Shown here one piece after another: positions 3,430 through 20,417 of a stretch of DNA of 64,000 bases. The stretch comes from a phage. The stretch is from the NCBI GenBank assembly GCA_036253055.1, contig GCA_036253055.1_4124.1. One strand, 5' to 3'. Positions within the stretch are counted from its first letter, which is position 1. Every line of letters starts with the position of its first letter. The position numbers were made by a program, and so were the translations under genes. The notes under the pieces were generated by a model, which ran no database searches, was not told the DNA's origin, and saw only the letters and a list, made by a program, of their open reading frames with translations.

Positions 3430-3440
3430 ATTCTTTTTTG

Positions 3441-5946: not shown

Positions 5947-5977
5947 TGTGTTGACTCCTTGAGTTAATGAAACTATA

Positions 5978-6220
5978 TTACAGTACTTTACTATCAATGG
6001 CAACTACTTTTTTTACTTGAACTGCGTGGAATACTTCACTCGTATTTTTAGTACTGAATACTTTTGCCGTACCTTGTTCGACCGCAATACGATAGCGACC
6101 GTTAACGTCCACCATATTGATAAAGTCCGGTGTACTGAATGGAGTTACCCGGCATTTAAGAACGGTTAACAGTTCCACCAGCGTTGTAGTCTCTTTGATA
6201 CGTTTTTCTAAAGTAATCAT
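5978..6220 (-). CDS. hypothetical protein
   Basis: Track start is promoter TTGACA read as TTG; ATG 6218-6220 used. Confidence 0.45.
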   Translation of the reverse strand: MITLEKRIKETTTLVELLTVLKCRVTPFSTPDFINMVDVNGRYRIAVEQGTAKVFSTKNTSEVFHAVQVKKVVAIDSKVL

Positions 6221-6273
6221 TTTGTTTTCCCCGTGTTGGTATGCATTCATAGTACTAAAACATTTGAGTACTG

Positions 6274-6528
6274 TCAACGTGATATTAGTTTTATTTTTTT
6301 ATTGTATTGTTGGTGTTCATATAGATTAATTTTTCCAGTACTCTCGATCACTATTCTATTGTTAGTGTCTACATCGATAACACGTAGTTTCCCGTTGCTT
6401 AACTTCCTGGGTAATAGACTACCATTAATAAACTCATTAGCAAGCTGTACGGCCTTTGTGATGATTCTCTGTGGGGCTTTATAGTGTACCCGTAATACAT
6501 TATCGTTTGATAGTTGAACCTTAATCAT
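6274..6528 (-). CDS. hypothetical protein
   Basis: 84 aa; ATG 6526-6528. Confidence 0.5.
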   Translation of the reverse strand: MIKVQLSNDNVLRVHYKAPQRIITKAVQLANEFINGSLLPRKLSNGKLRVIDVDTNNRIVIESTGKINLYEHQQYNKKIKLISR

Positions 6529-6590
6529 TTTGTTTATCCTATAAAAAAGGCGGGAACTATTCCCGCCGTGTTGTTAGTACTGCAAAGTTA

Positions 6591-6986
6591 TTAGATAACC
6601 TGGCGGCGTTTACTGTATACTGTTACACGGTTTCCTTTACGGTCATGACGAATCTCTTTCTGGTTACGAATCAGTTCACTTGGACGCTTAAGGTTTGCCA
6701 GGTGATCCGCGTGAGTCCATGCATTTGCGTTAACTGTAACTTCAATATCAGAACCTTTCAAAAAGTCATCTTGAGCGTTCAGTACTTCAGCCAGTTCTTG
6801 AGCTTTCTTCAGTTCTGCTTCAGTAAGTACTGGTTCAGGTGAATTCACAATATCAGAGATCTCTTTGAACTGTACCGCCCAGCGTTGTCCTTTCGGTGCA
6901 TCTTTGCCCATGTCTTTAAATGTTTCACCTTCTTCACGGGCAACGATGCGAGCTTGTTCACGGGTAGCGAAGAATTTAGTAATCAT
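6591..6986 (-). CDS. hypothetical protein, paralog of 19008..19274
   Basis: Shares FATREQARIVAR..GxTFKDMG..RWAV and C-terminal HDRKGNRVTVYS with 19008..19274; start uncertain (6995 or 6986). Confidence 0.5.
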   Translation of the reverse strand: MITKFFATREQARIVAREEGETFKDMGKDAPKGQRWAVQFKEISDIVNSPEPVLTEAELKKAQELAEVLNAQDDFLKGSDIEVTVNANAWTHADHLANLKRPSELIRNQKEIRHDRKGNRVTVYSKRRQVI

Positions 6987-7085
6987 GGTGTACATCCTAT
7001 TAGTTAAGTTAATTAGTACTACAAGTTAGAGTCTATTATAAAGTACTATCTGGGCAATGTCAAATAGTACTTTAAATGGATTCTA

Positions 7086-7409
7086 TTACATGTCTTTCTT
7101 ACGTTTTACATCGTAGTAACGAACTGTAATTTCTTTGTTGATCTCTTCCTCGATGCGGTGAATAACTTTTTCTTTCGGGTTGAAACCTATTACAGTTTCT
7201 TTAATGATCTCCAAGCCCGTGTATTCGCCTTGTGTACCGTAACCGTAAGTAAAGGTTTCATGTCCCAGGTCTTCCCAGCGGTCACCAATCAATGCAGACA
7301 CGTAGCATGAGTGGTAAGTATTGCCGTGGCTATCAGTCCACCGATTAACTTTAATGTCAAAGGAGGTTACAATTTTCAATTCGACTTTCTGGGTAAGGAT
7401 CATAGTCAT
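7086..7409 (-). CDS. hypothetical protein, paralog of 14147..14470
   Basis: Shares WTDSxGNTYHSC..FTYGY motif with 14147..14470. Confidence 0.55.
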   Translation of the reverse strand: MTMILTQKVELKIVTSFDIKVNRWTDSHGNTYHSCYVSALIGDRWEDLGHETFTYGYGTQGEYTGLEIIKETVIGFNPKEKVIHRIEEEINKEITVRYYDVKRKKDM

Positions 7410-7496
7410 TTTAATTTCTCTCTTTTTGTTAGGAGGGGAACCATTCCCCTCACTTGATGTAAACTATTATACAGTACTAAGATACTTTGTCAATAC

Positions 7497-7631
7497 TTAT
7501 TTGTTTTCTTTTCGTAATTTCTTTTCAGCTTCAACTACATTACGATTTGTGCAAACCACTTCATCGGATAAATCTAACTTCCAGCCAGCCAGGGGATTGG
7601 TTGCTTTTTTAGTGTTGTTTGCTGCTTTCAT
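7497..7631 (-). CDS. small basic protein (44 aa), paralog of 13042..13188
   Basis: Not in track (<60 aa); hand-translated MKAANNTKKATNPLAGW...; SD AAGGAAAC; promoter module upstream. Confidence 0.45.
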   Translation of the reverse strand: MKAANNTKKATNPLAGWKLDLSDEVVCTNRNVVEAEKKLRKENK

Positions 7632-7698
7632 GATGTTTCCTTATTAATTAAGATGTAAACTATTATACAGTACTAAAAACTATTGTCAAACTATTTTA

Positions 7699-7899
7699 TC
7701 AAATTGTTTCCCATTTCATGTTACCCGCTTTACGCTGTGCAACAGGAATAAACATGTTATTAATGTTACTAATATAACCGACCTGTAAGTCACGCTGTGA
7801 ACCATACGCCCGACTTGCTGCATTTTTAGCACCGCGTTCTGATTTATAAACGCCGCTGGATACTGTAAATCCTACTACACCGAAAGTAAAATGTTTCAT
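7699..7899 (-). CDS. hypothetical protein
   Basis: 66 aa; SD GAGGAA. Confidence 0.5.
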   Translation of the reverse strand: MKHFTFGVVGFTVSSGVYKSERGAKNAASRAYGSQRDLQVGYISNINNMFIPVAQRKAGNMKWETI

Positions 7900-8223
7900 T
7901 TTGTATTCCTCTTTGTGGTTGATGTAAGTATTATACTCGTTTACTTGGTATTGTCAAACTATTTTATCAGGGGAGGTTTTCGTATGTCTTACTCCTGGAC
8001 TACTTAACGGGGAGTTACTTGTTTCGTTCCCCGTCCTGATGTAAAACATTATACGCTTATCATGATACTTTGCAAGTACTTTTTAAAAAATAGTTTTCAG
8101 TACTTGATAGTACTAGCCACCAGCATATAATAGATACATTTATGCACCCTGTGGGTTAGATTGTTTCTGTGCATATATAATAGCAAAGGGACTGACCGGA
8201 GTCAATCCCTTTTTTAAATCTTT

Positions 8224-8373
8224 TTAAACTTGTTTTGGGTTGCGATATGTGATAGCGTTCGGGTACATTTGTTTAATGTTATTCCATGCCTGGTTAACAT
8301 TGTAACCACTTGATCGAATCAGTTGGTTACTACCGACACCTTGAAACACTACTTCAAATAAGAATTCTTTCAT
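8224..8373 (-). CDS. small hypothetical protein (49 aa)
   Basis: Not in track; hand-translated; SD GAGGTGA; ATGA overlap with 8370..8543. Confidence 0.4.
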   Translation of the reverse strand: MKEFLFEVVFQGVGSNQLIRSSGYNVNQAWNNIKQMYPNAITYRNPKQV

Positions 8374-8543
8374 GCTTTCACCTCGCTATCTGCTTTGCCT
8401 TTACGCCAGGCCGTTGCTAATTGTTCGCGTTGCCATAAGTCGAGTGATACGTAAAGTTTTGCATTATCACCCTTCGGATATTCGCCAGTAGTACCAATCC
8501 GATAAAACAGATCTTTCAGTACTGATAATTCTACTTGGATCAT
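8370..8543 (-). CDS. small hypothetical protein (57 aa)
   Basis: Not in track; SD AGGAG; stop overlaps next start. Confidence 0.45.
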   Translation of the reverse strand: MIQVELSVLKDLFYRIGTTGEYPKGDNAKLYVSLDLWQREQLATAWRKGKADSEVKA

Positions 8544-8632
8544 TGTATTACTCCTGATTGTGTTAGTACTTCTACGATGGCATGAATGATCATAAGTACA
8601 GCTAACACAACAATCATCGGATTCATTTGCAT
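8540..8632 (-). CDS. hydrophobic micro-protein (30 aa, single TM)
   Basis: Hand-translated MQMNPMIVVLAVLMIIHAIVEVL...; SD AGGAG 8 nt upstream; coupled to downstream gene. Confidence 0.35.
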   Translation of the reverse strand: MQMNPMIVVLAVLMIIHAIVEVLTQSGVIQ

Positions 8633-8649
8633 AAGCTGTACTCCTTCTA

Positions 8650-8862
8650 TTAATCTTTCAGCCAATGATCTTGAATGAATTTTTCACAGAATCCCTGTTT
8701 CATAGATTCTAACAGGCGTTCACGGTGAGCGGCGGCATATTGCTCAGTACTATGCGTTACGCCAGGTTGATAACGTGAAACACCGTCCGGTCCGATATAT
8801 TGAACATCCCACGGTTTTTCGTTAGTATCAGACCATTTACGAACGATTAGTTGACCTTGCAT
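8650..8862 (-). CDS. hypothetical protein
   Basis: 70 aa; SD GAGGAAA; promoter and hairpin 8880-8939. Confidence 0.55.
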   Translation of the reverse strand: MQGQLIVRKWSDTNEKPWDVQYIGPDGVSRYQPGVTHSTEQYAAAHRERLLESMKQGFCEKFIQDHWLKD

Positions 8863-8879
8863 GTTTCTTTCCTCTTAGT

Positions 8880-8899
8880 GGGGAGAATCATTTCTCCCC
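8880..8899 (-). promoter_or_regulatory. conserved 5'UTR hairpin (GGGGAGAA-loop-TTCTCCCC) between promoter and SD
   Basis: Perfect 8-bp inverted repeat; recurs with small variations downstream of most early promoters. Confidence 0.55.
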
Positions 8900-8911
8900 T
8901 TCATGTAAACT

Positions 8912-8939
8912 ATTATACAGTACTAGATTACATTGTCAA
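8912..8939 (-). promoter_or_regulatory. sigma70-like early promoter (TTGACA, 16 nt, TG-extended TATAAT)
   Basis: Minus strand TTGACA..CAGTACTGTATAAT; one of about 40 near-identical modules in the window. Confidence 0.6.
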
Positions 8940-8945
8940 TAGTTT

Positions 8946-9269
8946 TTATTCACCTTGTTTGAATTTAGTTTTCTCCATTGATTCCATGATTGCAACCAAT
9001 ACAGCATGGATCTCACTTAACGCGGCATCACTAAAAGCATTAATGAATAGGCAATCATTCTCGCGAATATTTTTAATGTACTTATCAGCAGTGGTTGCGA
9101 ATTCATTCAACGGCAGATCAAATGCTTTATCCCATAATGGATGGCGTAACTGTAACAGTACTGGATTATCACGGTCACCAGGTGAGAAAGTGCCTGTAAT
9201 GAAACATACACCAGGGATACTTTCGAATTGACAACGAACTTCTTTTGTGATAGTAGTATGAATATACAT
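8946..9269 (-). CDS. hypothetical protein
   Basis: 107 aa; SD GAGGA. Confidence 0.5.
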   Translation of the reverse strand: MYIHTTITKEVRCQFESIPGVCFITGTFSPGDRDNPVLLQLRHPLWDKAFDLPLNEFATTADKYIKNIRENDCLFINAFSDAALSEIHAVLVAIMESMEKTKFKQGE

Positions 9270-9296
9270 TTATTTTTATCCTCTATTAAATTAATA

Positions 9297-9485
9297 TTAC
9301 AGTTTATGAATCAATTCTTTATCTAAGCGATAGCGAACATTATTGATTGTAACTGCATTGTTTTTAATGCTACGCTGTACAGGTCCACCAGCAATAACAA
9401 ACGTTGCCTTATTGCCCCGAACGATGATAGCACTTCCAGGATTACCAAAATCATCTTGTACTAAAATACTTGATAAGTTTTGCAT
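9297..9485 (-). CDS. hypothetical protein
   Basis: 62 aa; SD AAGGAAAG; promoter and hairpin 9503-9561. Confidence 0.5.
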   Translation of the reverse strand: MQNLSSILVQDDFGNPGSAIIVRGNKATFVIAGGPVQRSIKNNAVTINNVRYRLDKELIHKL

Positions 9486-9533
9486 TTGTCTTTCCTTGTA
9501 GTGGGGAGAACTATTCTCCCCTTCATGTAAACT

Positions 9534-9561
9534 ATTATACAGTACTTAAAACTAAATGCAA
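9534..9561 (-). promoter_or_regulatory. sigma70-like early promoter (TTGCAT, 16 nt, TATAAT) for gene 9297..9485
   Basis: Minus strand TTGCAT-N16-TATAAT; UTR hairpin GGGGAGAACTATTCTCCCC at 9503-9521. Confidence 0.6.
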
Positions 9562-9564
9562 GTA

Positions 9565-9921
9565 CTAGGATAAAATCATTATAGGATATTCACAGTTAAT
9601 CAGTACTTCAAAACCAAAACTTTCATACCATTCTTTAAGATTAAACTCGTTATCTTCTCCCGTATCGCATTCTAAGATGATACAATCTGAATCATCGGCG
9701 GCATCAATAAAGGCATTCATTAATTCAGTACCTTCACCGTTACCGCGATTATCGGGATCAACATAAAGAGAATCAATAAACGCTACACGATCATAATCAA
9801 GATCCGGTGCAACAATGCCACGTTTAACAAACCAGTACTGCAATTGTGCTACTTTGCCTTGTACTTGATAGCCAGTGATCTCACCATTGTCTGTAGTACG
9901 CGTGATATGTTGTATACCCAT
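9565..9921 (-). CDS. GNAT-family N-acetyltransferase-like protein
   Basis: Motif-A-like DNRGNGEGTELMNAFIDAA; 118 aa; SD GAGGA. Confidence 0.5.
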   Translation of the reverse strand: MGIQHITRTTDNGEITGYQVQGKVAQLQYWFVKRGIVAPDLDYDRVAFIDSLYVDPDNRGNGEGTELMNAFIDAADDSDCIILECDTGEDNEFNLKEWYESFGFEVLINCEYPIMILS

Positions 9922-9984
9922 GATTTCAATCCTCAGTTAAGATATAAAATATTATACACTAACTAACAGCACTGTCAATACTTT

Positions 9985-10242
9985 TTATCTCATAGATCTA
10001 TGCCAACAATTACGGGGATTGCGTTTGAATATGCTATCATGATCAGCCTGGCAAGTGATGCAGTACTTACACCCCTTAACGGCCAGGCGGCGATTCTCAG
10101 GGATTTTATCGCCGCAGTCGAGGCAATGTATCAGTGATTCTATTTGTGCGTTAATTTGCGTTCTAGCGTGGTTTACAGCGGCCTGAATCACTGCGTTAAT
10201 CTCGTCTTGCTCGGCCCCGTCATTCGCGAATCCAACAGCCAT
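9985..10242 (-). CDS. TraR/DksA-family C4 zinc-finger protein
   Basis: CLDCGDKIPENRRLAVKGCKYCITCQ fits the TraR/DksA C4 zinc-finger pattern. Confidence 0.6.
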   Translation of the reverse strand: MAVGFANDGAEQDEINAVIQAAVNHARTQINAQIESLIHCLDCGDKIPENRRLAVKGCKYCITCQADHDSIFKRNPRNCWHRSMR

Positions 10243-10405
10243 TATTTTAACCTCATTATAAAAATACTATAGTACTGTAATGCTACAATAATACTACTAG
10301 TACTGATTTTATTCAAACCGTATGATACTACATATTCCCCAGCATTACCACGAATGGTAACGCCTTTGTACTTTCTATATAATTTCAACTACGTTTATTG
10401 CCTTT

Positions 10406-10476
10406 GATCAAGATTTGATCAGAATTATACGCCTTATGCTAAATTGATCCAGTACTTTTTTGATCATTTATTGATC
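10406..10476. promoter_or_regulatory. cluster of five TTGATC (GATC) sites in 71 bp
   Basis: GATC at 10406, 10417, 10446, 10462, 10473, each preceded by TT. Confidence 0.45.
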
Positions 10477-10571
10477 GATATTATATAGTTACATTTGTGC
10501 ACCCTATGGGTTAGTGACGTTCTCGTCTTGATGTAAGTATTATGCCAGTACTGGCATAATTTGTCAATAGA

Positions 10572-10769
10572 TTATTTTAACTTTTTTCTGTCATTGATTA
10601 ATGCTTTCAGTACTATACTAATGATCTGCAATGATTCATCAATGACTATAAAATTATTTTCTTTCATTAGATGATAGTTACCATTGATTGTATATTCTAA
10701 GGAGTACTGTTTACGTTTAATTTTTGATAATGTTTCTATTTGTTTTTGTACTGATTTCATGCTAATCAT
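10572..10769 (-). CDS. hypothetical protein
   Basis: 65 aa ORF. Confidence 0.45.
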   Translation of the reverse strand: MISMKSVQKQIETLSKIKRKQYSLEYTINGNYHLMKENNFIVIDESLQIISIVLKALINDRKKLK

Positions 10770-10874
10770 TGTTAAACGTCCTGTAACGCATTCTAACGAG
10801 TTAAACGGTTTAGTACTGGCATTGTATAGGGTAAAGGATTAAAGCCCACCAGCGTTAACCAGTGGGCTATAATC

Positions 10875-11018
10875 TTACATCTTGCGGATAATCTTAACAG
10901 TATCTTTCACCGATTTACCGTCTTGCTGACATTGTTCGATCATCGCGTATTGTTCTGCGGTCAGATCCTCGCCAGTTTTTGCCAGTACTGCGTCGATGAA
11001 TGAATCCAGTGCGATCAT
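10875..11018 (-). CDS. small hypothetical protein (47 aa)
   Basis: Not in track; hand-translated MIALDSFIDAVLAKTGEDL... Confidence 0.4.
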   Translation of the reverse strand: MIALDSFIDAVLAKTGEDLTAEQYAMIEQCQQDGKSVKDTVKIIRKM

Positions 11019-11117
11019 TTTGTTTCTCTCTTAGGTTAAGTTAACTACTGTTTATAAAACTTATTATACAGTACTATCAAACTATGTCAATATCTTTAAT
11101 AGTACTGGTAATATATT

Positions 11118-11297
11118 TTAGCGGTAGTCGTCGTATGCTTTATTCACCTGGCGAATGTAACTTTCAAAGGCTTCGTCTACCGTTTCATACTCCCGAACAT
11201 AATCACCATAGGAAACTACATACATCCCTTTTTGATCTTCAAACGTCATGATGATAGAATCCAGGCCGATGATTTCAGTTTTTGCGATAATAGCCAT
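11118..11297 (-). CDS. small hypothetical protein (59 aa)
   Basis: Not in track (59 aa); SD AAGGAA; hand-translated MAIIAKTEIIG... Confidence 0.45.
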   Translation of the reverse strand: MAIIAKTEIIGLDSIIMTFEDQKGMYVVSYGDYVREYETVDEAFESYIRQVNKAYDDYR

Positions 11298-11380
11298 TTT
11301 AGTATTCCTTAGTAGTGTAGTTGATAAAAGTTATTATGCCAGTACTATCAATCATTGTCAATAGTACTGTGATAATATTT

Positions 11381-11593
11381 TTAGTTAATGATAGTCAGTG
11401 TAAAATTGTAATCCCCTGCCTGGTATAGTACTTTGTCGCCGAATGTACCAACACGTTTCATATTGCAATAGATACCCATAACACTTTTTACATCTTTGAT
11501 ATTCCGAACGCCTGTGATATCCTTGTTGAAATTTTCATGTTCAGAAAATAAAACTTGTTTTGCATTTTTCAGTACAGTGCAGATATTAGCCAT
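11381..11593 (-). CDS. hypothetical protein
   Basis: 70 aa. Confidence 0.5.
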   Translation of the reverse strand: MANICTVLKNAKQVLFSEHENFNKDITGVRNIKDVKSVMGIYCNMKRVGTFGDKVLYQAGDYNFTLTIIN

Positions 11594-11686
11594 TTTGATT
11601 TCTCTCTGTTTGTGGGGAGAACTATTCTCCCCTTGATGTAACTTATTATACAGTACTATAATCTATTGTCAAACTATTTTTTAATA

Positions 11687-12028
11687 TTATTCAAAATCTT
11701 CTGGACCGGACTGATAATCATCTTCACCGTATGCACTTTCTAACTTCTCGCCAGTGTGATCATCAGTTAGTGAGTCATCCTCATAGTTCACGTCTACGCC
11801 TACAATGTAAAACTGGCTATCGTCTGGATCATTGAAATTAATTTTCTGAATGTTTACAATAACGGTATTGATGCCCAGGACACCGCCATCAGCAGTTACA
11901 AAGTACTGATATTTTTCACAACCGCCTGAATTGAAACCGTAATTAATTTCGGCCCGACCATCATTTAAACGCAGTGCCTGGGCGATGATTTCATTTTCAA
12001 AGTTAGATTGAGCAATTGAGATAGTCAT
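11687..12028 (-). CDS. highly acidic hypothetical protein (candidate DNA mimic)
   Basis: 113 aa; D/E-rich C-terminus DDSLTDDHTGEKLESAYGEDDYQSGPEDFE; SD AAGGAAAC. Confidence 0.5.
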   Translation of the reverse strand: MTISIAQSNFENEIIAQALRLNDGRAEINYGFNSGGCEKYQYFVTADGGVLGINTVIVNIQKINFNDPDDSQFYIVGVDVNYEDDSLTDDHTGEKLESAYGEDDYQSGPEDFE

Positions 12029-12238
12029 GATTTGTTTCCTTATTACCAGGGGAAACCGTTTCCCCTTTCGATGTAAAACATTATACGCTTATTGAGATAG
12101 TTTGCAAGTACTTTTTAAAAATAGTTTTCAGTACTCAAACATTATATAATAGATACACTTATGCACCCTGTGGGCTAGTGAGCTATCTCTCAATGAATAT
12201 ATAATAGCAAAATGGCTGACCGGAGTCAACCACTTTTT

Positions 12239-12382
12239 TCATTTATTTTTAGCTTTTAGAATCGCCGCCTTTCGCGTCATGCCTTGCTTGATGTATTCCT
12301 GTACTTTCGCTTTACGTGCATTCGCTTTATTTGCTTTCGTAAACGCCGAACAACTTTTATAATTTAAGCCTGTTGGATTCAT
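12239..12382 (-). CDS. small basic protein (47 aa)
   Basis: Not in track; K/A-rich; hand-translated. Confidence 0.35.
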   Translation of the reverse strand: MNPTGLNYKSCSAFTKANKANARKAKVQEYIKQGMTRKAAILKAKNK

Positions 12383-12472
12383 TTAAATCACCATAAAGAA
12401 TAGATAGGTTACTAACAATGCCGCGATCAATGCACCGACCAGGGCCGAACTATAGTAAGCTAATGATTTCAT
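12383..12472 (-). CDS. hydrophobic micro-protein (29 aa, single TM)
   Basis: Hand-translated MKSLAYYSSALVGALIAALLVTYLFFMVI; ATGA overlap with upstream gene. Confidence 0.3.
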   Translation of the reverse strand: MKSLAYYSSALVGALIAALLVTYLFFMVI

Positions 12473-12621
12473 TTTTTAGCCTGAAAGTAATGTTTAATTT
12501 GTGCGGCGGTCAGTGCACAATTACGCAGGAAGTTTTCTGTATAACTGCGGCGAGTACTGAAAGAGAATTGACCTTTGCCGTTACCGATAGTAACATCAAA
12601 CCGAGCGTTGTATTGTTTCAT
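12469..12621 (-). CDS. small hypothetical protein
   Basis: Start moved to ATG 12619-12621; track N-terminus is translated UTR hairpin. Confidence 0.45.
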   Translation of the reverse strand: MKQYNARFDVTIGNGKGQFSFSTRRSYTENFLRNCALTAAQIKHYFQAKK

Positions 12622-12707
12622 TTTGATTCTCCTGTTATTGGGGAGAACCATTTCTCCCCTCTATGTAAAACATTATACGCGTTTAAAAACTAATTGCAAG
12701 TATTATT

Positions 12708-12959
12708 TTAAACTTTGTATTTTAAACTTTGTGCGACTAATTTCGCACGGTCAATCATATTCTGCCATTTTTGGATCTCTTCTGGTAGAAAACGATATTC
12801 ACCAATTACAATAGTGATACACTGGTCAGCCTTGTCGATGTATGTGGTATCAATCTCTACTTGAACGGGTACACGTTCGCCGTACTCAGTCCCTGGGATA
12901 ATGCAATCATTATCATAAGTTACAGTAGTAGCAGTGTCTTTGATTAAAATTGTTTCCAT
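12708..12959 (-). CDS. hypothetical protein
   Basis: 83 aa; SD GAGGAAAG. Confidence 0.55.
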   Translation of the reverse strand: METILIKDTATTVTYDNDCIIPGTEYGERVPVQVEIDTTYIDKADQCITIVIGEYRFLPEEIQKWQNMIDRAKLVAQSLKYKV

Positions 12960-13041
12960 TATACTTTCCTCGTTAGGTGTAAGGGGAACGTTTTCCCCTT
13001 CATGTAAACTATTATACAGTACTAAAAACTAATTGCAAGTA

Positions 13042-13188
13042 CTATTTTTTAGATTTACGCAAACTTTCTACCATCTCAGGAGTAAGGCCAGGCGGGTAGG
13101 AAACCACTTCATCAACGAAACGTAAAGGGAATACCCCAGCGAAAGGTGAACGTGCTTTCTTAGTATTACTCTTTTTTGATGCTTTCAT
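13042..13188 (-). CDS. small basic protein (48 aa), paralog of 7497..7631
   Basis: Not in track; hand-translated MKASKKSNTKKARSPFAGV...; shares MKA..N.KKA..P.AG N-terminus with 7497..7631. Confidence 0.45.
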   Translation of the reverse strand: MKASKKSNTKKARSPFAGVFPLRFVDEVVSYPPGLTPEMVESLRKSKK

Positions 13189-13257
13189 TTCATATTCCTT
13201 AATTAGTGGGGAGAATCATTTCTCCCCTTCATGTAAAACATTATACGCGTTTAAAAA

Positions 13258-13467
13258 CTAATTGCAAGTACTATTTGAAAGTAAATGCTCATACGCTGCA
13301 TTAACTACGTTTTCAATAACCGACTGTACAGAAAGATCCCCCACGTCCTGGCTATAGTAGAAATCGCTTACAGTGGTGTCATCGTATGCAAATACTTTAC
13401 CAGGTACTGCATCAATCACATACATATTAACCTTTAAGATGTCGATCTTATCCTGTACAGTAAGCAT
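13258..13467 (-). CDS. hypothetical protein
   Basis: 69 aa; 5-nt gap from upstream gene. Confidence 0.5.
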   Translation of the reverse strand: MLTVQDKIDILKVNMYVIDAVPGKVFAYDDTTVSDFYYSQDVGDLSVQSVIENVVNAAYEHLLSNSTCN

Positions 13468-13472
13468 ATTAA

Positions 13473-13745
13473 TTAACCTTTTAAGTACTGGCTTAAGTAG
13501 TCTTGTTGATCTTCGGTGATTGCAGCCATCTTCCCTAGTACTGGATTGATGATATAATCCCCTGTAACGTCCTGTAACGCATTCTCAGGCGGTTTAACGG
13601 CTGGGGTAGCCATAGCCATTGCCTGGACTTGTTCGACGCTGTAACGCTCATAAAGGCGGCATTCTTCCGGTGTTAACATAGCATCAGTACGCTTCATCGG
13701 TTTAATGATGCTTTCGATCTCATTCAGTACTTGATTAACGTTCAT
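13473..13745 (-). CDS. hypothetical protein
   Basis: 90 aa; SD GGGGA. Confidence 0.5.
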   Translation of the reverse strand: MNVNQVLNEIESIIKPMKRTDAMLTPEECRLYERYSVEQVQAMAMATPAVKPPENALQDVTGDYIINPVLGKMAAITEDQQDYLSQYLKG

Positions 13746-13796
13746 GGTATAATCCCCAATATAAGCGGCCTAAATCGACCGCTAACGATGTTTTGA

Positions 13797-14066
13797 TTAA
13801 TAGGTGTATGGTTGACGCTCAAACAATGAATAGACGTTATACGCCCCGCTTATGGGCTTCGCTGGTAAATCAATTTTATATTGTTCACGCTTAAAGATAA
13901 TAAAACGGCAATTGTTTTTAACATCAAAATTGATTGAACGTTCCAGGAGTTTACCATCGTGCACAAATACAAGATAACCGCTTGGTACTTGTTTTGTAGA
14001 ACTGGTTGCAACCATAGACCGACGAACATGTGTACCTGCATCGATTAAAGTACTGATATTTTTCAT
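13797..14066 (-). CDS. hypothetical protein
   Basis: 89 aa; SD AGAGGA. Confidence 0.5.
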   Translation of the reverse strand: MKNISTLIDAGTHVRRSMVATSSTKQVPSGYLVFVHDGKLLERSINFDVKNNCRFIIFKREQYKIDLPAKPISGAYNVYSLFERQPYTY

Positions 14067-14146
14067 TTTACTATCCTCTTAAGTTGATTTAATTTCTTTC
14101 TCCTATGCAGACACTATATCAAAGTATCTGCATAAAGTAAAGCTAA

Positions 14147-14470
14147 TTAAAGATCTTTTTTGCGTTTAACATTCTGTACAGTACAATGCAACGGGATATT
14201 AAGATCATTGCACAAACGATAGAGGGAGGTTTCAACAGTATCAAGCCCGTCTACTGATTCCTTTAAGAGTGATACCGCCGTTTGTTGATATGCATCCTCA
14301 TAGCCATAAGTAAATGATTCAACCGCCAGATCATTCAAGCCGTTATCCAGTTCAACGCTTACATGACAAGAATGATAAGTATTGCCATATGAATCAGTCC
14401 AACGTTTACCGTCAACATTGATTGCATGGATTGCAGCCAGGGAAACGGTGTTGATGATAGTTTTAGCCAT
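14147..14470 (-). CDS. hypothetical protein, paralog of 7086..7409
   Basis: WTDSYGNTYHSC..FTYGY motif; SD AAGGAA. Confidence 0.55.
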   Translation of the reverse strand: MAKTIINTVSLAAIHAINVDGKRWTDSYGNTYHSCHVSVELDNGLNDLAVESFTYGYEDAYQQTAVSLLKESVDGLDTVETSLYRLCNDLNIPLHCTVQNVKRKKDL

Positions 14471-14561
14471 TTTAGTATTCCTTAAATTAATATGTGTCGT
14501 CTTGATAAAATCTATTATGCCAGTACTATCAAACTATGTCAATAGTACTGTGATAATATTT

Positions 14562-14774
14562 TTACTTACTTTCTTTCGCTGCTTTATATGTTGCCACTGC
14601 CATAACCACATCAGCACGAACAAAGTTTTTAACCGTGTCACTGTAATAATTGATCGCATCATCTATATCTGCGAACGTCCGATACATACCGCACCAAGAT
14701 ACTTTATAACCTTCTTTCACTTCTACCAGTTTAACGATAGTCTTGTTAACTTTGATTTTAGTAATGATAGCCAT
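14562..14774 (-). CDS. hypothetical protein
   Basis: Start moved to ATG 14772-14774; track N-terminus is translated UTR hairpin. Confidence 0.5.
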   Translation of the reverse strand: MAIITKIKVNKTIVKLVEVKEGYKVSWCGMYRTFADIDDAINYYSDTVKNFVRADVVMAVATYKAAKESK

Positions 14775-14861
14775 TTTAGTTTCCTCATTATCAGGGAGAA
14801 CCATTTCTCCCCTTGATGTAATGTATTATACTTTATTCGATTTACTTTGCAAGTACTTTTT

Positions 14862-15089
14862 TTAATTTAATTCATCCAGGCAAAGGATACGCTCAACGCC
14901 CAAATCAGTTAAACTAATCGACGGCACTTGATAGGTTTCAATGTATGCTACACTTGCCCACTGACCGAACTCATTAACGGCCCAGGTATTCATTGCATTT
15001 TGCAATTCCGCACCTGCCTTGTTAGTAATGACTGCAACTACTTGTTCGTTGCCAGTAGTACCAGATACGCGAGTAATGATAATAGCCAT
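14862..15089 (-). CDS. hypothetical protein
   Basis: Track N-terminus MFYIERGK is translated promoter; start moved to ATG 15087-15089. Confidence 0.5.
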   Translation of the reverse strand: MAIIITRVSGTTGNEQVVAVITNKAGAELQNAMNTWAVNEFGQWASVAYIETYQVPSISLTDLGVERILCLDELN

Positions 15090-15319
15090 TGTTTTGATTC
15101 CTTTGATTTGGAAGGAGAACCGTTTCCCCCTCTCGATGTAAAACATTATACGCTAATCTCTTAATCGTGCAAGTACTTTTTATTACTTTTTGCAAAATAC
15201 TTTAAACGCTCTCAATCGCATTCTAACGACCTTAACGCCACCAGCTAGGGCGATGTATCAGATAATCAGTTTAATGCGTTAGAATCGATTCTAGGCGGTG
15301 CTGGTGGACTGGAATACTA

Positions 15320-15350
15320 CAGACACAAAAAAGCCCACTGTTTAAGGTGG
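15320..15350 (-). terminator. rho-independent terminator after gene 15375..15857
   Basis: Minus strand AGCCCACC-loop-GGTGGGCT followed by TTTTTTGTGT. Confidence 0.6.
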
Positions 15351-15374
15351 GCTAGTGATTCAGTACTTTAATTG

Positions 15375-15857
15375 TTATGCTTCAACTTTGCGATGAGCTT
15401 CGATCCATTCCTCGCGAGTCATACCGCTTTCTTTGATAGCGTCCAGTACTACCGCAATGCAGTTACCGCGTACAGGAATCAAATGTTCTTCCCCGTTATC
15501 AAGGACAACAGTAACACGTTCTTGAATCCATTTTTTAGGCTTAGATTCCGGCTTATCTTCACCGTACTTAACCGCCAGGGCTTTATGTGCCATTTCAATA
15601 ACCACTTCCAGATCTAAACCAGACACCGCCGCCTGAATACTTTCTATTGTTGCTTGCAGTTCTGCTTCACGGGCTTTTTTCTGTTCTTCCAGTTCTGCTA
15701 CCTTTTTGGCTTGTAGTTCTTTCGCTTCACTGTAAGCAATGTTAAAATTGTTGCGTACTGCTTTCATGGTATCATTATCCAGGTCAGCCAGCAATTCAGC
15801 AGCAATCACAGTATCGTTAGAAATCAGTGCTTTCAGAAATGATTTTACATTAGCCAT
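15375..15857 (-). CDS. possible H-NS-like nucleoid-associated protein
   Basis: N-terminal coiled coil (ELQAKKVAELEEQKKAREAELQ); C-terminus IPVRGNCIAVVLDAIKESGMTREEWI loosely resembles the H-NS DNA-binding region; start at ATG 15855-15857 (SD GAGGA). Confidence 0.35.
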   Translation of the reverse strand: MANVKSFLKALISNDTVIAAELLADLDNDTMKAVRNNFNIAYSEAKELQAKKVAELEEQKKAREAELQATIESIQAAVSGLDLEVVIEMAHKALAVKYGEDKPESKPKKWIQERVTVVLDNGEEHLIPVRGNCIAVVLDAIKESGMTREEWIEAHRKVEA

Positions 15858-16049
15858 TTTATAAATCCTCAATTAAAGTTTAAGTTAGTTTATCAAAGTT
15901 TGTTTGACGTGTCCAGTTTTTCATTCGACTTACTGGCGGTCTACTTAATGTTCCCCGTCTTGATGTAATACATTCTACGCTTTTCCCTGGTAATGTCAAC
16001 TACTTTTTTAAAACTATTTTCAAAGTATACCAGTACTACGATACTACAA

Positions 16050-16085
16050 AAACAAAAAAGCCCACTGTATAAGTGGGCTAGTGAT
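16050..16085 (-). terminator. rho-independent terminator after gene 16097..16396
   Basis: Minus strand AGCCCAC-loop-GTGGGCT followed by TTTTTTGTTTTTG. Confidence 0.6.
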
Positions 16086-16096
16086 TCAGTACTATA

Positions 16097-16396
16097 TTAT
16101 AAACAATTAATTACGCCAGTGAATGTAACTTTCTCTGTATCCATTACAGTAACCGAACCGCGTTTACTTTTTGCATCGTAATAGATGGTCGTGCTACCCT
16201 GATCATCTTCTTCATGGTACGGGCCATTAGCAAACATTGCAGGGGCCAGTTCCAGGGATTTGGTAACGATCTCAGCCGTTTCCTCGTTAGTCATTGCAAC
16301 AGTGCACTGAATGAATTTTTCTTTCTGTACATCAACGGAAGCGTTAACAGCGAAAGAGGAAACAGATAAAGCCAGGGCGATGATTGCAGTTTTCAT
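16097..16396 (-). CDS. secreted protein (signal peptide)
   Basis: N-terminus MKTAIIALALSVSSFAVNA; SD AAGGA; terminator downstream at 16050-16085. Confidence 0.55.
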   Translation of the reverse strand: MKTAIIALALSVSSFAVNASVDVQKEKFIQCTVAMTNEETAEIVTKSLELAPAMFANGPYHEEDDQGSTTIYYDAKSKRGSVTVMDTEKVTFTGVINCL

Positions 16397-16506
16397 TTGT
16401 ATATCCTTTGTTAGTACTAGGGAGTATTCCCGATTAGATGTAAAACATTATACGCGTTTAAAAACTATTATCAAGTACTTTAATATAAAAGTATTTGAAA
16501 AAAAGT

Positions 16507-16535
16507 CTTGACAACTGCATCCAGTACTGGCATAA
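16507..16535 (+). promoter_or_regulatory. plus-strand sigma70-like promoter (TTGACA, 17 nt, CATAAT) driving a short non-coding transcript
   Basis: TTGACA 16507-16512, CATAAT 16530-16535; followed by CCCACAGGGTGC motif and hairpin 16610-16640; no ORF. Confidence 0.45.
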
Positions 16536-16641
16536 TATCTACATAAAGACGAGATAGTCACTAACCCACAGGGTGCATAGATCCGTCTATTAAATGATTC
16601 AGTACTGCAAAATAAAGGGGATCGTTTGATCCCCCTGATTA

Positions 16642-16863
16642 TTACTTAGTAAGATATAAACAAAAATCACCTTTCTTTGATACTCCGCAAGTGTAACGCG
16701 ATGAATAGTTAGAAACGTCTTGTACTTCTGCAATGACGAGCGTATCATCATTTAACTCATCGCAAAAACATACTGCGGGATCTTCTACGCCGATATTGTC
16801 GGCATGTTCCCGCATAGATTTAACCAGTGCTTCAAGCTGGGAAAGAGTAGTGATATTAGCCAT
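16642..16863 (-). CDS. hypothetical protein
   Basis: 73 aa; SD TAAGGAG. Confidence 0.55.
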   Translation of the reverse strand: MANITTLSQLEALVKSMREHADNIGVEDPAVCFCDELNDDTLVIAEVQDVSNYSSRYTCGVSKKGDFCLYLTK

Positions 16864-16947
16864 TGTAAAACTCCTTATTAGTGGGGAGAACCATTTCCCC
16901 CTTGATGTAAACTATTATATAGTACTGGAAACTATTTGCAAGTACTT

Positions 16948-17136
16948 TTAATTAAATTCCATAAAATCATTTTCAACGTGCACAACAATCTGATTATTTT
17001 TAAAGGACGCAGAAAACTCTATACAATCATAAACCGCTTTTTCTGTTACCAGACTATGAGCACCAATCGGATTAATTGGGGATTGAATTGTTTCAATCTC
17101 GTTACCCTGCTCATTTACAATTAAAATATTAAACAT
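16948..17136 (-). CDS. hypothetical protein
   Basis: 62 aa; SD AGGAG. Confidence 0.5.
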   Translation of the reverse strand: MFNILIVNEQGNEIETIQSPINPIGAHSLVTEKAVYDCIEFSASFKNNQIVVHVENDFMEFN

Positions 17137-17210
17137 TGTCGTTACTCCTGGATAGTGTTAACTCGATGTAAACAATTATACAGTACTGGAAACTAATTGC
17201 AAGTACTTTT

Positions 17211-17414
17211 TTAATTTAATTGCTTTAAAACAAAATCAAAGACACCACGCACATCATTGATCATCGCCTGGCGGTTAGCAGGTAACGCATCAGGATCGCC
17301 ACTATCCCAGGCATTAATGAAGCCACTTAAATCATGGAATACTTTATTCCGTAACCCGATCAACTGCAATTCTTTTTCTTCAAGCTCTTTGATACGTTCA
17401 ATTAAATCACTCAT
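17211..17414 (-). CDS. hypothetical protein
   Basis: Start moved to ATG 17412-17414 (SD GAGGA). Confidence 0.45.
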   Translation of the reverse strand: MSDLIERIKELEEKELQLIGLRNKVFHDLSGFINAWDSGDPDALPANRQAMINDVRGVFDFVLKQLN

Positions 17415-17431
17415 TAGATAATCCTCAGTAC

Positions 17432-17716
17432 TCAATTGTAAGATCCACATCGTTCGCAGTAGTGTTCATCTTCCTCATCTTCTACCACTTGCCCGATGAA
17501 ATGATCTACTTTCGCTTTCAGGTTATTATAATCGTTTTCTACTTCCTGTAAACGTTCCTGGTAGTATTCCAGGGCTTCAACAAATGCAGCTTCCTCTGAT
17601 TTTGCTTGCATCGATAAATTCATCCCGCGTGTTTCATCATATAGCCAAAAACCATCGGTGCATTCAGTTATAGATAACGTGTTAGTCAGTACTTTACTAT
17701 TAATTACTTTGCTCAT
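17432..17716 (-). CDS. hypothetical protein
   Basis: 94 aa; C-terminal CERCGSY; SD GAGGA. Confidence 0.5.
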   Translation of the reverse strand: MSKVINSKVLTNTLSITECTDGFWLYDETRGMNLSMQAKSEEAAFVEALEYYQERLQEVENDYNNLKAKVDHFIGQVVEDEEDEHYCERCGSYN

Positions 17717-17801
17717 TAGATAATCCTCATTAAAGGCGGGAACTATTCCCGCTCTCGATATAAAGTATTATACGTTAATCTAATTACTTTGCAAGTACTT
17801 T

Positions 17802-18038
17802 TTAGTGCTTTTTATAAAACATCTCAGCGGTGATATTTTTACCCGTTGGTTGTACTTTATCCAGGATCTTTTGGTGTGCACTACGCCCGAAAGAATAAGA
17901 ACCGTAAACCGTTAGCCAGTAGTCGCCATTTTGGTTTACATGTACCGCACAATAAGGAACGCCCCGCGAATCGTCACCAATGAAGTGTGATACTGTACCC
18001 GTTACGTTTGGCGTTGTAGTTTTGATTTGTTCGATCAT
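17802..18038 (-). CDS. hypothetical protein
   Basis: Start moved to ATG 18036-18038 (SD AGGAG); track start lies in the UTR hairpin. Confidence 0.5.
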   Translation of the reverse strand: MIEQIKTTTPNVTGTVSHFIGDDSRGVPYCAVHVNQNGDYWLTVYGSYSFGRSAHQKILDKVQPTGKNITAEMFYKKH

Positions 18039-18096
18039 TTCTCTTACTCCTGGGATATAGGCGGGAACCATTCCCCGCCATTGATTCAGTACTGAA

Positions 18097-18708
18097 TTAA
18101 TATTCGATAGATTCTACTACATCGTCGATAACGTTAAATTGATATTCGTTACCCTCAATCAGTCCTACAATGTTTTCAGTAGTAAACTGGTCTTCATAAG
18201 CATTTTCTAAATCACGGTACAGCTTACAAGATAATTCTCGGATAGTATCAGTCAGTAAGTTTTCCAGATCCTCAGCCAATGCAGCCTGTTTTACAGTTAA
18301 ATCAGTGTAGCGAGTATCAACGCAACCGCCTACCGTGTTTTCGTGAGCGTAGCGTGATTGGGAACGTTCTACACTCATTTCCAAATCATCTTCGTTCAAC
18401 AGGTGACGGATGGAACGATATTTCGTTAACGCCTTAACCTTGCGTAAAAACTTCTCAGCGTCAACGTGGTCAGTACTGATTGATGCACCGTCACCTTGCG
18501 ACCAAAAACCACTGTATTGCAATTCAGCTTCATCTATGCCGTATTCTGGCAGTACTGTTTCTTTATAGTATTCCAGTACTGATTCAGCAAAGAAATTATC
18601 CTCACTTGCACGTTCCCGATCCCGAACCAGTTCGATAGCCGCCGCTTGTTGTTCTGCGTTCAGTTCAGAAAAATCCATAACGAAAGTAGTAGTAGTGATA
18701 GTTTTCAT
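18097..18708 (-). CDS. acidic hypothetical protein
   Basis: 203 aa; acidic; SD GAGGG. Confidence 0.5.
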   Translation of the reverse strand: MKTITTTTFVMDFSELNAEQQAAAIELVRDRERASEDNFFAESVLEYYKETVLPEYGIDEAELQYSGFWSQGDGASISTDHVDAEKFLRKVKALTKYRSIRHLLNEDDLEMSVERSQSRYAHENTVGGCVDTRYTDLTVKQAALAEDLENLLTDTIRELSCKLYRDLENAYEDQFTTENIVGLIEGNEYQFNVIDDVVESIEY

Positions 18709-19007
18709 TTTGTAACCCTCATTCAGTAGTTGATGTAAGTATTATACGCTTTTAAAAACAATTGTCAAACTATTTTATCAGGGGAGTTTTTCGTGTGCCT
18801 TACTCCTGGGCTACTTAACGGGAAGTTACTTATTTCGTTCCCCGTCCTGATGTAAAACATTATACGCCTTTAAACATAGTTTGCAAGTACTTTTTGAAAA
18901 TAGTTTTTATCTCTTTCATATAGATACATTCCCGCACCCTATGGGCTATCGCCTTGTGTCCGGCTTGTAAGTATTATCTCACTAAGCCGGATAACGGTCA
19001 AGTACTT

Positions 19008-19274
19008 TTATTCAAGTACTGCAATCTTTTTAGTACTGTACACAGTAACGCGGTTGCCCTTGCGGTCGTGCTTTATTTCTACCACGCGACGCGATACACT
19101 ATCAGGACGCTTTAAAGCAGATAGCCAGTACTGAATTGATCGGGCTGTACTTTGCTTTACTACGGCCCAACGTTTACCACGTTCAGATTGTACGCCCATA
19201 TCTTTAAACGTTGCCCCGTCCTGGCGTGCTGCAATCCGAGCTAGTTCACGCGTCGCAAAATATGTAATAGTCAT
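19008..19274 (-). CDS. hypothetical protein, paralog of 6591..6986
   Basis: Start moved to ATG 19272-19274 (SD AGGGG); shared FATRELARIAAR and HDRKGNRVTVYS motifs. Confidence 0.5.
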   Translation of the reverse strand: MTITYFATRELARIAARQDGATFKDMGVQSERGKRWAVVKQSTARSIQYWLSALKRPDSVSRRVVEIKHDRKGNRVTVYSTKKIAVLE

Positions 19275-19357
19275 GCTGTTACCCCTATCGTTGATGTACA
19301 AAAAGAACTTTATTATAAAGTACTATCACCGTGCAATAGTACTTTTAATCTATTCTC

Positions 19358-19597
19358 TTACATTCCAACCATCGCCGCACGGATCGCAGTAGTACTATAC
19401 TTAAAGCCGTCCGGTGTTTTATCTTGTCCAGTCTGTTCTAAAAATAGCATCATATGACGGGCCGCATCATTACGATTAGTGTTAGCGGCAATAAAGTCCT
19501 GGGCCAACCGGTATAATGATTCGTCGTTATTAATCCAAAGGCTTACATTCCATTGAGTTTTGTTTTTGTGTCCTAAGAACATTTTTGATTTAGCCAT
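19358..19597 (-). CDS. hypothetical protein
   Basis: Start moved to ATG 19595-19597; track N-terminus is translated promoter. Confidence 0.45.
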   Translation of the reverse strand: MAKSKMFLGHKNKTQWNVSLWINNDESLYRLAQDFIAANTNRNDAARHMMLFLEQTGQDKTPDGFKYSTTAIRAAMVGM

Positions 19598-19691
19598 TTT
19601 TAAATCCTCTTTATTATAGTGGGGAACTATTCCCCACCTGATGTAAAACATTATACGCTTTTAAACTTAGTTTGCAAGTACTTTATTAAAC

Positions 19692-20054: not shown

Positions 20055-20417
20055 CGTTTTAATCTCTTTTAAAGTGTAGCGGGAAGTGTTCCCGCTCTCG
20101 ATGTAAAACATTCTACACCTTTCCCAATACTTTGCAAGTACTTTCTACAAATACTTTTAAAATAGTTTTCTTTCTATATAGGGGAACTATCTTTCAGTAC
20201 TGCAACCATCCAGGGGAACTATCTTTCTATATAGTAGTACTATGATTCAGTACTGAATCAATCCACCAAATCATCCCGATACCCCGTAAAACGGCCTCAG
20301 ACGCATTCTAACGCATTAATACACCTAAGCTATACATTTGCACCATTCCAATCATTCCAGGGCTTTACAGGCCGTTTAAACGCGTTAAATTATTTTCAAT
20401 TATTTTGTTTTTAGCTA

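Follow-up and report, generated by a model that had tools for sequence, protein, structure and literature searches.

How did three pairs of small related genes come to lie kilobases apart in the early region of one phage, and were they copied together with the promoters that precede them? The genes fall between positions 6,591 and 19,274 of a 64,000-nucleotide (nt) stretch of phage DNA, here called the window (NCBI GenBank assembly GCA_036253055.1, contig GCA_036253055.1_4124.1). A preliminary description of this sequence took their dispersal, each gene behind a promoter module of its own, as a sign that whole promoter-gene cassettes had been duplicated. We favor a different history, with a probability of about 70%: the three pairs are probably old paralogs in an early gene array within a terminal repeat, an array shuffled by recombination at shared regulatory modules.

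The six genes are all encoded on the minus strand:

6591..6986, minus strand: gene 1A, 131 amino acids (aa), long form of family 1 (phrog_8127; BLASTP and PHROG hidden Markov model (HMM))
19008..19274, minus strand: gene 1B, 88 aa, short form of family 1, linker lost (BLASTP and PHROG HMM)
7086..7409, minus strand: gene 2A, 107 aa, family 2 (phrog_6246), with the motif RWTDSxGNTYHS...YGYG...V.DVKRKKD
14147..14470, minus strand: gene 2B, 107 aa, family 2 (BLASTP and PHROG HMM)
7497..7631, minus strand: gene 3A, 44 aa, a rare accessory cassette (BLASTP and comparison with relatives)
13042..13188, minus strand: gene 3B, 48 aa, conserved, the sole family-3 copy in 25 phage records

The pairs themselves were correctly described: the members encode homologous proteins (35–44% aa identity), and the reported spacing of 6–12 kb corresponds to measured distances of 12.3, 7.1 and 5.6 kb for pairs 1, 2 and 3. 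In BLASTP comparisons, 1A and 1B share 45 of 129 residues (E 5e-22), with 52% aa and 55% nt identity over 86 alignable codons; the N-terminal ~40 and C-terminal ~35 residues are conserved, and a ~41-aa linker of 1A is missing from 1B. Genes 2A and 2B align without gaps (39/107 residues, 36%, E 3e-27; 49% nt identity), and 3A and 3B share 21 of 48 residues (44%, E 4e-8). All three similarities are significant. For pair 3 we also compared the clusters with hhalign (probability 85%, E 6e-6) and scored the proteins by Smith-Waterman alignment, obtaining 59 against 19.2 +/- 3.4 for shuffles, none of which reached 59 in 5000 (z 11.8); the next best early protein scored 31. An all-against-all BLASTP of 428 open reading frames (ORFs) returned no true paralog pairs among the early minus-strand genes beyond these three. 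An apparent fourth pair (4916-5194 vs 14862-15146, E 4e-7) proved to be a translated stretch of shared 5′ untranslated region (UTR), and after correction of the starts it gave no BLASTP hit at E <= 10. That artefact, and the shortness and basic composition of pair 3 (44 and 48 aa), are what could be said for reading the similarities as chance or as a compositional effect of short lysine-rich ORFs. The E values already refute that reading for pairs 1 and 2, each of which also falls in one PHROG family (E 1e-28 to 1e-39), and the shuffles and the distant runner-up speak against it for pair 3, leaving it a practically negligible chance.

Where in the genome these genes sit is indicated by close relatives. 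A Megablast search with positions 6000-20000 matched 195 phage records, nearly all of them jumbo Escherichia Asteriusvirus (121Q, PBECO4, G17, CRJP21, fEgEco12); identity to these relatives was 88-93%, with coverage of merely 35-76% split into 6-20 pieces. Positions 498-6304 are 98% identical to phage 121Q, and by these matches the window is from a 121Q-like Asteriusvirus jumbo coliphage. In the related phage vB_Ec-M-J the homologous DNA, positions 1-21525, is annotated as a 21,525-bp direct terminal repeat, which gives the corresponding feature in the window:

1614..21789: early gene array, equivalent of a ~21 kb direct terminal repeat, approximate bounds by homology to vB_Ec-M-J 1-21525

A direct terminal repeat of ~21 kb was shown experimentally in fEgEco12 by restriction mapping (PMC13070987). 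By homology, then, the paralog genes sit inside a direct terminal repeat, among ~50 small ORFs that are on the minus strand throughout, and records that hold both terminal repeats carry family 1 and family 2 genes at four places rather than two. Host-type promoters and the analogy with other phages suggest that the array is expressed early and acts on host functions, its small genes presumably taking part in host takeover.

The regulatory modules between these genes follow one plan. Between 2049 and 20160 we mapped at least 35 (35 before 33 genes). Read along the coding strand, each runs from an A/T-rich tract, found in all 35, through an AGTACT box and a predicted sigma-70 promoter (TTGCAA or TTGACA, a 16-17 nt spacer, TATAAT) to a (G/A)TTTACATC start region, often a hairpin, a Shine-Dalgarno (SD) sequence and the ATG. 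Twelve modules score 12/12 against the sigma-70 consensus, and most of the remainder are TTGCAA-16-TATAAT. In 30 of 35, AGTACT occupies one of two fixed positions, either overlapping the -35 or abutting the -10. The hairpin, present in 19, has 7-9 bp at a fixed offset 10-14 nt past the -10 (e.g., GGGGAGAA/TTCTCCCC), with the SD and ATG 15-25 nt beyond it. Its 5′ arm is almost purely purine (148/152), and the 19 hairpins use 15 distinct stems with compensatory changes. Their pairs comprise 144 Watson-Crick and eight G.U pairs; all eight of the latter are valid on the sense strand only, so the hairpin is best read as an RNA feature of the 5′UTR. Early timing, promoter activity and a role for the hairpin are predicted from these features. 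An earlier reading that placed the start codon in the hairpin loop, giving a shared MVLP N-terminus, arose because the ORF finder took the first ATG; the true start codons, preceded by good SD sequences, are 20-30 nt farther downstream. The elements that stand before and after the paralog genes are:

7035..7063, minus strand: predicted 1A promoter, TTGACA-17-TATAAT (12/12), atypical in having neither the TTTACATC start region nor a hairpin
19312..19345, minus strand: 1B upstream module, -10 TATAAT kept at 19317-19312, -35 geometry destroyed by a 5-nt deletion relative to 1A
7433..7493, minus strand: 2A module, TTGACA-16-TATAAT, class B, AGTACTG abutting the -10
7451-7433, minus strand: 2A 5′UTR hairpin, GAGGGGAA-tgg-TTCCCCTC
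14514..14565, minus strand: 2B module, class C, two AGTACT boxes, TTGACA-17-CATAAT, extended -10 TG, no hairpin
7662..7689, minus strand: predicted promoter before 3A, TTGACA-16-TATAAT, class B, no hairpin
13208..13267, minus strand: 3B module, class A, AGTACTTGCAA-16-TATAAT-GTTTTACAT
13227-13208, minus strand: 3B hairpin, GGGGAGAA-atga-TTCTCCCC
6549..6567, minus strand: intrinsic terminator, GGCGGGAATAGTTCCCGCC followed by T6, closing the unit 7899 > 3A > 2A > 1A

A promoter-like module thus stands directly upstream of every pair member, as the preliminary description held, except that 1B has been left without a usable -35 by its 5-nt deletion; its module looks like a decayed copy of a 1A-type promoter. 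Were the promoters copied with the genes? The same description proposed comparing coding with promoter identity, and we did so for core promoters (-45 to +16 around the -10) against a background of all 595 module pairs. Codon-aligned nt identity was 0.55, 0.49 and 0.58 for pairs 1, 2 and 3 (unrelated gene pairs, 0.42 +/- 0.05), with saturated third codon positions (0.31-0.45). Core promoter identity was 0.67, 0.70 and 0.69, indistinct from the background of 0.66 +/- 0.07 (59th-73rd percentile), and 5′UTR identity was 0.59, 0.54 and 0.41 (background 0.53 +/- 0.14). The modules most alike precede non-homologous genes (12028/5137 at 0.94; 14470, the start of 2B, and 11297 at 0.92).

Local (Smith-Waterman) alignment of the full 115-nt upstream regions, with each partner ranked among 32, singled out pair 1, whose upstream regions are reciprocal best matches (rank 1/1); partner ranks were 19/3 for pair 2 and 14/20 for pair 3. 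The pair-1 similarity extends over a 58-column block from the stop codon of the preceding gene to the -10, taking in that stop codon, AAAGTACTAT, the -35 region and GATAGTACTTTATAATA. The 1A promoter signature TAATAGAAT..ATTTAAAGTACTAT...GATAGTACTTTATAATA is common to the 1B upstream region and is kept in the orthologous upstream regions of G17, CRJP21, vB_Ec-M-J and EJP2. Within the other pairs the modules differ in class: 2A has class B with a hairpin and 2B class C without one, and 3A has class B without a hairpin and 3B class A with one. Duplication of the genes, or acquisition of homologs, is therefore real, and upstream sequence supports the promoter and gene as a copied unit for pair 1 but not for pairs 2 and 3.

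For 3A such copying is directly contradicted by comparison with 121Q. At this locus the window and 121Q are nearly identical through gene 7899-7699 and the entire next promoter, up to TATAATAGTTTACAT; past that point they are unrelated, 121Q having a hairpin, a leader and a 91-aa gene, and the window a hairpin-less leader and 3A. Identity resumes 3 nt before the -35 of the 2A promoter. Since the promoter before 3A is identical to that of a different gene at the same 121Q locus, it was evidently not brought in with 3A, and the junctions indicate that the exchanged unit was the leader (5′UTR) plus ORF, with the promoter cores fixed. Unrelated genes fill the 3A slot in 121Q, G17, CRJP21 and vB_Ec-M-J. 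The 3A coding sequence is missing from all 50,697 phage records, among which a tblastn search with 3A gave not even a weak match; it was found in a 5-member cluster on ~18 contigs, including contigs of ~350 kb. Gene 3B, by comparison, is 87-100% identical in the 25 phage records, where it is the single family-3 copy. Given this absence of the one and conservation of the other, 3A cannot be a recent copy of 3B; it would be an ancient duplicate that nearly all relatives have lost or, as the simpler explanation, a homologous cassette brought in from elsewhere.

Breakpoints across the array fall preferentially in the same kind of place. Taking as breakpoints the ends of long high-scoring segment pairs between positions 1-22000 and G17, vB_Ec-M-J, 121Q and CRJP21, we found that they recur at the same places; of 36 breakpoint clusters, 24 are in promoter-to-ATG modules, whose share of the region is 19.7% (binomial p 1.2e-9). 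In EJP2, which has diverged furthest within the genus, the order of mid-array cassettes is heavily rearranged, with orientation kept.

These observations suggest recombination as the mechanism of cassette shuffling. The modules, 60-94% alike regardless of the gene that follows, would act as early promoters and homology patches at once, and recombination between them would duplicate, delete, replace and relocate ORFs. Crossovers falling inside the modules would leave the promoter core with its locus and move the 5′UTR and ORF, and promoter similarity would thereby be decoupled from gene ancestry. On this account pair 1 would still display a true promoter-plus-gene duplication, after which 1B would have lost its linker and its -35, the members of pairs 2 and 3 would now stand behind modules of other classes, and 3A would be a recently exchanged cassette.

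The copies of families 1 and 2 are not recent. Synonymous divergence between 2A and 2B is saturated (pS 0.81), and essentially all (~37) Asteriusvirus records carry two copies of each family, with orthologs 85-99% and paralogs 35-38% identical. EJP2 has a single family-2 gene (48% identical to 2B, 40% to 2A), directly followed by a divergent family-1 gene. At the 1B locus EJP2 encodes a long-form protein whose N-terminal half is 1A-like and whose C-terminal half is nearly identical to 1B; from this intermediate it follows that the pair-1 duplication predates the EJP2 split and that evolution of 1B was rapid once the linker was gone. RaK2-type Klebsiella phages and jumbo phages of Erwinia, Yersinia, Serratia and Cronobacter give a single family-1 hit. 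Saturated synonymous sites and the genus-wide presence of both copies thus show, at the level of sequence comparison, that the duplications are old.

Among other histories, we consider it possible, though clearly less probable than old paralogy, that some pairs are xenologs, homologous cassettes imported separately from other phages through the shared modules. The 3A slot, with its unrelated occupants in four relatives, and the identity of 3A to 3B of merely 44-48%, against 87-100% among 3B orthologs, fit import well. So does 2B: its identity to a homolog from a contig that shows no AGTACT enrichment (49-51%) exceeds its identity to 2A (36%). Potential donors abound: family 2 comprises 546 representative clusters across public data, and families 1 and 2 both occur in the unrelated phage Av-05. 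Yet both copies of families 1 and 2 are fixed genus-wide at conserved loci, pair 1 has a promoter ancestry in common, and unequal rates could mimic the family-2 tree, a distance tree of 107 columns. Copying of promoter plus gene in all three pairs, followed by divergence of the promoters or their homogenisation with the module family, we judge unlikely. It would accommodate the module before every member and the reciprocal, atypical pair-1 signature, stop-codon context of the preceding gene included, but it sits poorly with the contrasts within pairs 2 and 3 (hairpin versus none, TTGACA versus TTGCAA, extended -10), with their upstream ranks, with the 92% identity between the 2B module and the one before an unrelated gene at 11297, and with the promoter before 3A serving a different gene in 121Q.

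Still harder to sustain, indeed highly improbable, is a single segmental duplication of a contiguous block 3-2-1 with later dispersal of one copy. The A copies are contiguous (3A > 2A > 1A, 7631 down to 6591) in one terminator-bounded unit, and families 2 and 1 are adjacent in EJP2 (2 > 1) and in Av-05 (1 > 2). The order, however, is not collinear, the transcribed strand reading 1B (19274)...2B (14470)...3B (13188)...3A-2A-1A; 3A is missing from nearly all relatives that have 2A and 1A; the pairs have diverged to differing degrees; and families 1 and 2 are not adjacent in RaK2, Hallingskeid or four metagenomic contigs. A more active role for the modules, as recognition sites of a phage-encoded system in which a protein binds or modifies AGTACT, regulates early transcription and targets exchange, strikes us as improbable. 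It would draw on the two fixed positions of AGTACT in 30 of 35 modules and on its 12-24-fold over-representation across Rak2-like genomes, which extends into ORFs in spite of codon constraints; if it held, the terminal repeat would be an integron-like platform that captures and reshuffles early genes.

Several points weigh against old paralogs shuffled at modules, the history we prefer. Pairs 2 and 3 could have been duplicated together with promoters that were overwritten later, and the data fit both histories. High-scoring segment pairs extend into shared modules by construction, so the breakpoint enrichment is consistent with module-mediated recombination and is no proof of it; viable breakpoints may also survive in intergenic DNA generally rather than in modules specifically. 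The closer match of 2B to a homolog on an unrelated metagenomic contig makes separate acquisition possible, and that would fit as well as ancient duplication. Early firing of the modules, and any role of the hairpin, are predictions.

The organization has a known counterpart. Promoter-early stem-loops (PeSLs), mobile regulatory cassettes of T4-type phages, combine a near-consensus sigma-70 promoter, preceded by an AT-rich tract, with a G/C stem-loop, an SD sequence and an ATG. Their neighbors are small ORFans in hyperplastic regions, and recombination junctions fall within the motif, including between the -10 and the SD (Arbiol et al. 2010, PMC2839356; Comeau et al. 2014, PMC4122927). The Asteriusvirus modules share the near-consensus sigma-70 promoter and the AT-rich upstream tract, have a G-run/C-run stem-loop in 19 of 35 cases, and are repeated by the dozen where the genome is most plastic, separating small early genes that are mostly ORFans; the junctions by which close relatives differ lie within them, some between the -10 and the SD, a position also seen in sequenced PeSL mini-circles. 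They differ in several respects. The hairpin has its fixed place within the transcript, downstream of the predicted start, and lacks a U-tract, and is for these reasons unlikely to be a terminator of the kind described for PeSLs; it looks like a 5′UTR RNA hairpin. Canonical terminators lie elsewhere on the minus strand (20537, 16636, 16079, 15353, 12236, 8212, 6567, 5350 and 3424). Neither the AGTACT palindrome at fixed positions nor the conserved TTTACATC start region has been described for PeSLs, and the array here lies in a long direct terminal repeat. Mini-circles are known from the T4-type system; our comparison was one of sequence. By its features the array matches the modular PeSL shuffling of T4-type phages and is a new instance of a known organization, and the paralogs themselves are ordinary old duplicates or imported homologs.

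Virulent phages with large genomes also have host-takeover clusters, such as genes 37-60 in the terminal redundancy of SPO1 and the pre-early region of T5. As here, these comprise dozens of small genes without annotated function in a long direct terminal repeat, co-oriented, with many strong host-type promoters and presumably the first DNA to be expressed. We saw no sequence relationship to the SPO1 and T5 clusters, and no search was aimed at one; to our knowledge, they have not been described as arrays of near-identical promoter modules or as holding these paralog families. Closer relatives have been surveyed for paralogs: Rak2-like phages are distant relatives of T4-like myoviruses, and phage CBB has RpoD-like promoters with UP elements in its early region and 22 paralogous ORFs (PMC5259590). 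As in the window, these are small hypothetical genes homologous within one jumbo genome and credited to duplication (PMC5259590), but they were listed without analysis of promoters, age or mechanism. Our literature search found no paper on these modules or paralogs in Asteriusvirus or other Rak2-like phages.

If our reading is right, it describes the organization and evolution of the least understood part of jumbo phages, the terminal-repeat early genes, and carries the PeSL concept beyond T4-type phages, into the Rak2-like jumbo clade: promoter cores would be fixed sockets, and small ORFs with their leaders exchangeable plugs. Annotators should be cautious, as promoter similarity within such an array would be uninformative on gene ancestry. 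The modules, as predicted here, may also be of practical use as a collection of strong, graded E. coli promoters that come with 5′ hairpins, and the two well-defined protein families are candidates for functional study, one of them with a confident new fold model and >500 relatives.

Families 1 and 2 give full-length matches to PHROG HMMs without assigned function (phrog_8127: 1A 1.7e-37, 1B 6.1e-28; phrog_6246: 2A 4.9e-37, 2B 2.8e-39), and the N-terminal domain of family 1 matches phrog_6265 as well. For family 1 we collected 47 relatives. The family is bipartite: in 1A a helical linker joins a beta-alpha-beta-beta domain at the N-terminus to a beta-hairpin at the C-terminus. The family-1 model is of mediocre quality (predicted local distance difference test (pLDDT) 75, predicted template modelling score (pTM) 0.33), and a Foldseek search with it against the PDB gave nothing significant. 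For family 2, clusters were counted at E <= 1e-3; some relatives carry it as the C-terminal domain of 200-590 aa proteins, and its conserved motif runs RW..SYGNTYHS, then YGYG..Y.QTA, then V.DV.RKKDL. Its fold is predicted with very high confidence (pLDDT 96.6, pTM 0.87): three long strands and two helices, with one more strand at the end. Against the PDB it showed at most weak drifts toward RNase H-like folds (E >= 0.04, template modelling score (TM) <= 0.38), and in BFVD it matched uncharacterised phage proteins alone (Salva, Av-05; TM 0.71-0.76). Pfam families were found neither for the six proteins nor among 60 members and 10 long relatives of family 2, a search of PDB sequences gave nothing below E 0.45, and we found no paper discussing phrog_8127, phrog_6246 or the 44-48 aa family. 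The 1A protein is 100% identical to P0003 on a ~350 kb contig of an E. coli O157 assembly. Ratios of nonsynonymous to synonymous substitution among orthologs were 0.05-0.19 for 1A, 1B and 2A; for 2B and 3B, with few substitutions and noisier values, they were 0.11-0.72. The orthologs of the paralog genes are under purifying selection.

Genes of families 1 and 2 are immediate neighbors in the window (6591-7409), in EJP2 (L005, 4944-5654) and in Av-05 (L007, 3974-4723), the last a Vequintavirinae phage unrelated to the window phage. We do not claim functional coupling of the two families, given the genomes and contigs named above in which they are not adjacent.

Several further repeats accompany the modules. 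The unrelated genes 7899 and 18708 share a 175-nt double-promoter leader, 87% identical (7915-8089 vs 18726-18900), with a distal class-A promoter, a long imperfect hairpin (ACGGGGAACGAAACAAGTAACTCCCCGT) and a proximal TTGACA promoter 118 nt downstream. Whole intergenic blocks of ~140-175 nt are 85-91% identical between loci. The longer intergenic regions hold a ~35-nt repeat, TATTATAT...ATACATTTATGCACCCTGTGGGTTAG, with a small ACCC-N3-GGGT hairpin, which has a repeated terminator (AAAGGGATTGACTCCGGTCAGTCCCTTT) on one side and the next class-A promoter on the other:

5257-5292, 8124-8159, 10479-10514, 12143-12178, 18914-18949, 20511-20538: ~35-nt intergenic repeat
16558-16598: inverted copy of the ~35-nt intergenic repeat

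An Rfam scan of positions 1-22500 gave no credible RNA family, the repeated GCACCCTATGGGT element being without a match. The class-C module (cAGTACTATTGACA..GTTTGATAGTACTGGCATAAT..TCATCAAGACGACACAT) at 14514-14565 and 11333-11361 recurs nearly base for base in the Erwinia phage Hallingskeid (L009, upstream of 3989), a conservation far in excess of what sigma-70 recognition needs. In Hallingskeid it precedes a family-1 gene, and the genes behind class-C modules differ between the Erwinia phage and the coliphage.

Two short words are in marked excess, more surprising than the paralog finding itself. AGTACT occurs 267 times in positions 1-64000 against 20.9 +/- 5.1 expected (~12-fold), making it the most over-represented hexamer and the sole enriched palindrome in the window, from which several other palindromes, among them CCATGG, CAGCTG, AGGCCT and AGCGCT, are absent. 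Within ORFs of >= 200 aa the count is 50, where synonymous-codon shuffling gives 15 +/- 3.2 (3.3-fold), and the sites occupy all three phases. Comparison across 121Q (L003), EJP2 (L005/L006), RaK2 (L008), Hallingskeid (L009) and loci L010, L012 and L014 showed 15-24-fold enrichment in Rak2-like relatives of several genera; enrichment was not seen in phage Av-05 or contig L013, and a literature search found no paper linking AGTACT to Rak2-like phages. The E. coli Chi octamer GCTGGTGG has 14 sites against 0.71 +/- 0.86 expected (20-fold), concentrated in the terminal repeat:

3304-21213: 10 Chi sites
32431-32951: 3 Chi sites
49204: 1 Chi site

In the terminal-repeat region, eight of the 10 Chi sites are on the coding strand, and a facing pair (21194/21206) lies near the presumed left genome end. 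The excess may protect linear ends from RecBCD.

Near the presumed left end of the terminal repeat, ~1.5 kb of non-coding DNA holds ~14 head-to-tail 8-nt units of the type CGTCTAGC/CATCCAGA (20888-20999), an array that may relate to the terminus, packaging or replication. On either side of the terminal-repeat region (65-1551 and 22045-25636, minus strand) lie tandem paralogous ORFs of ~60-75 aa, 25-64% identical within the arrays, which adjoin one another or overlap by a few nt and have no promoters of their own; similar runs are annotated in 121Q and vB_Ec-M-J. Beyond them, on the plus strand at 26191-39155, lie ~10 paralogous genes of ~340-430 aa each, 25-37% identical to one another and homologous to 121Q genes annotated as RCC1-like 'putative DNA condensation protein'.

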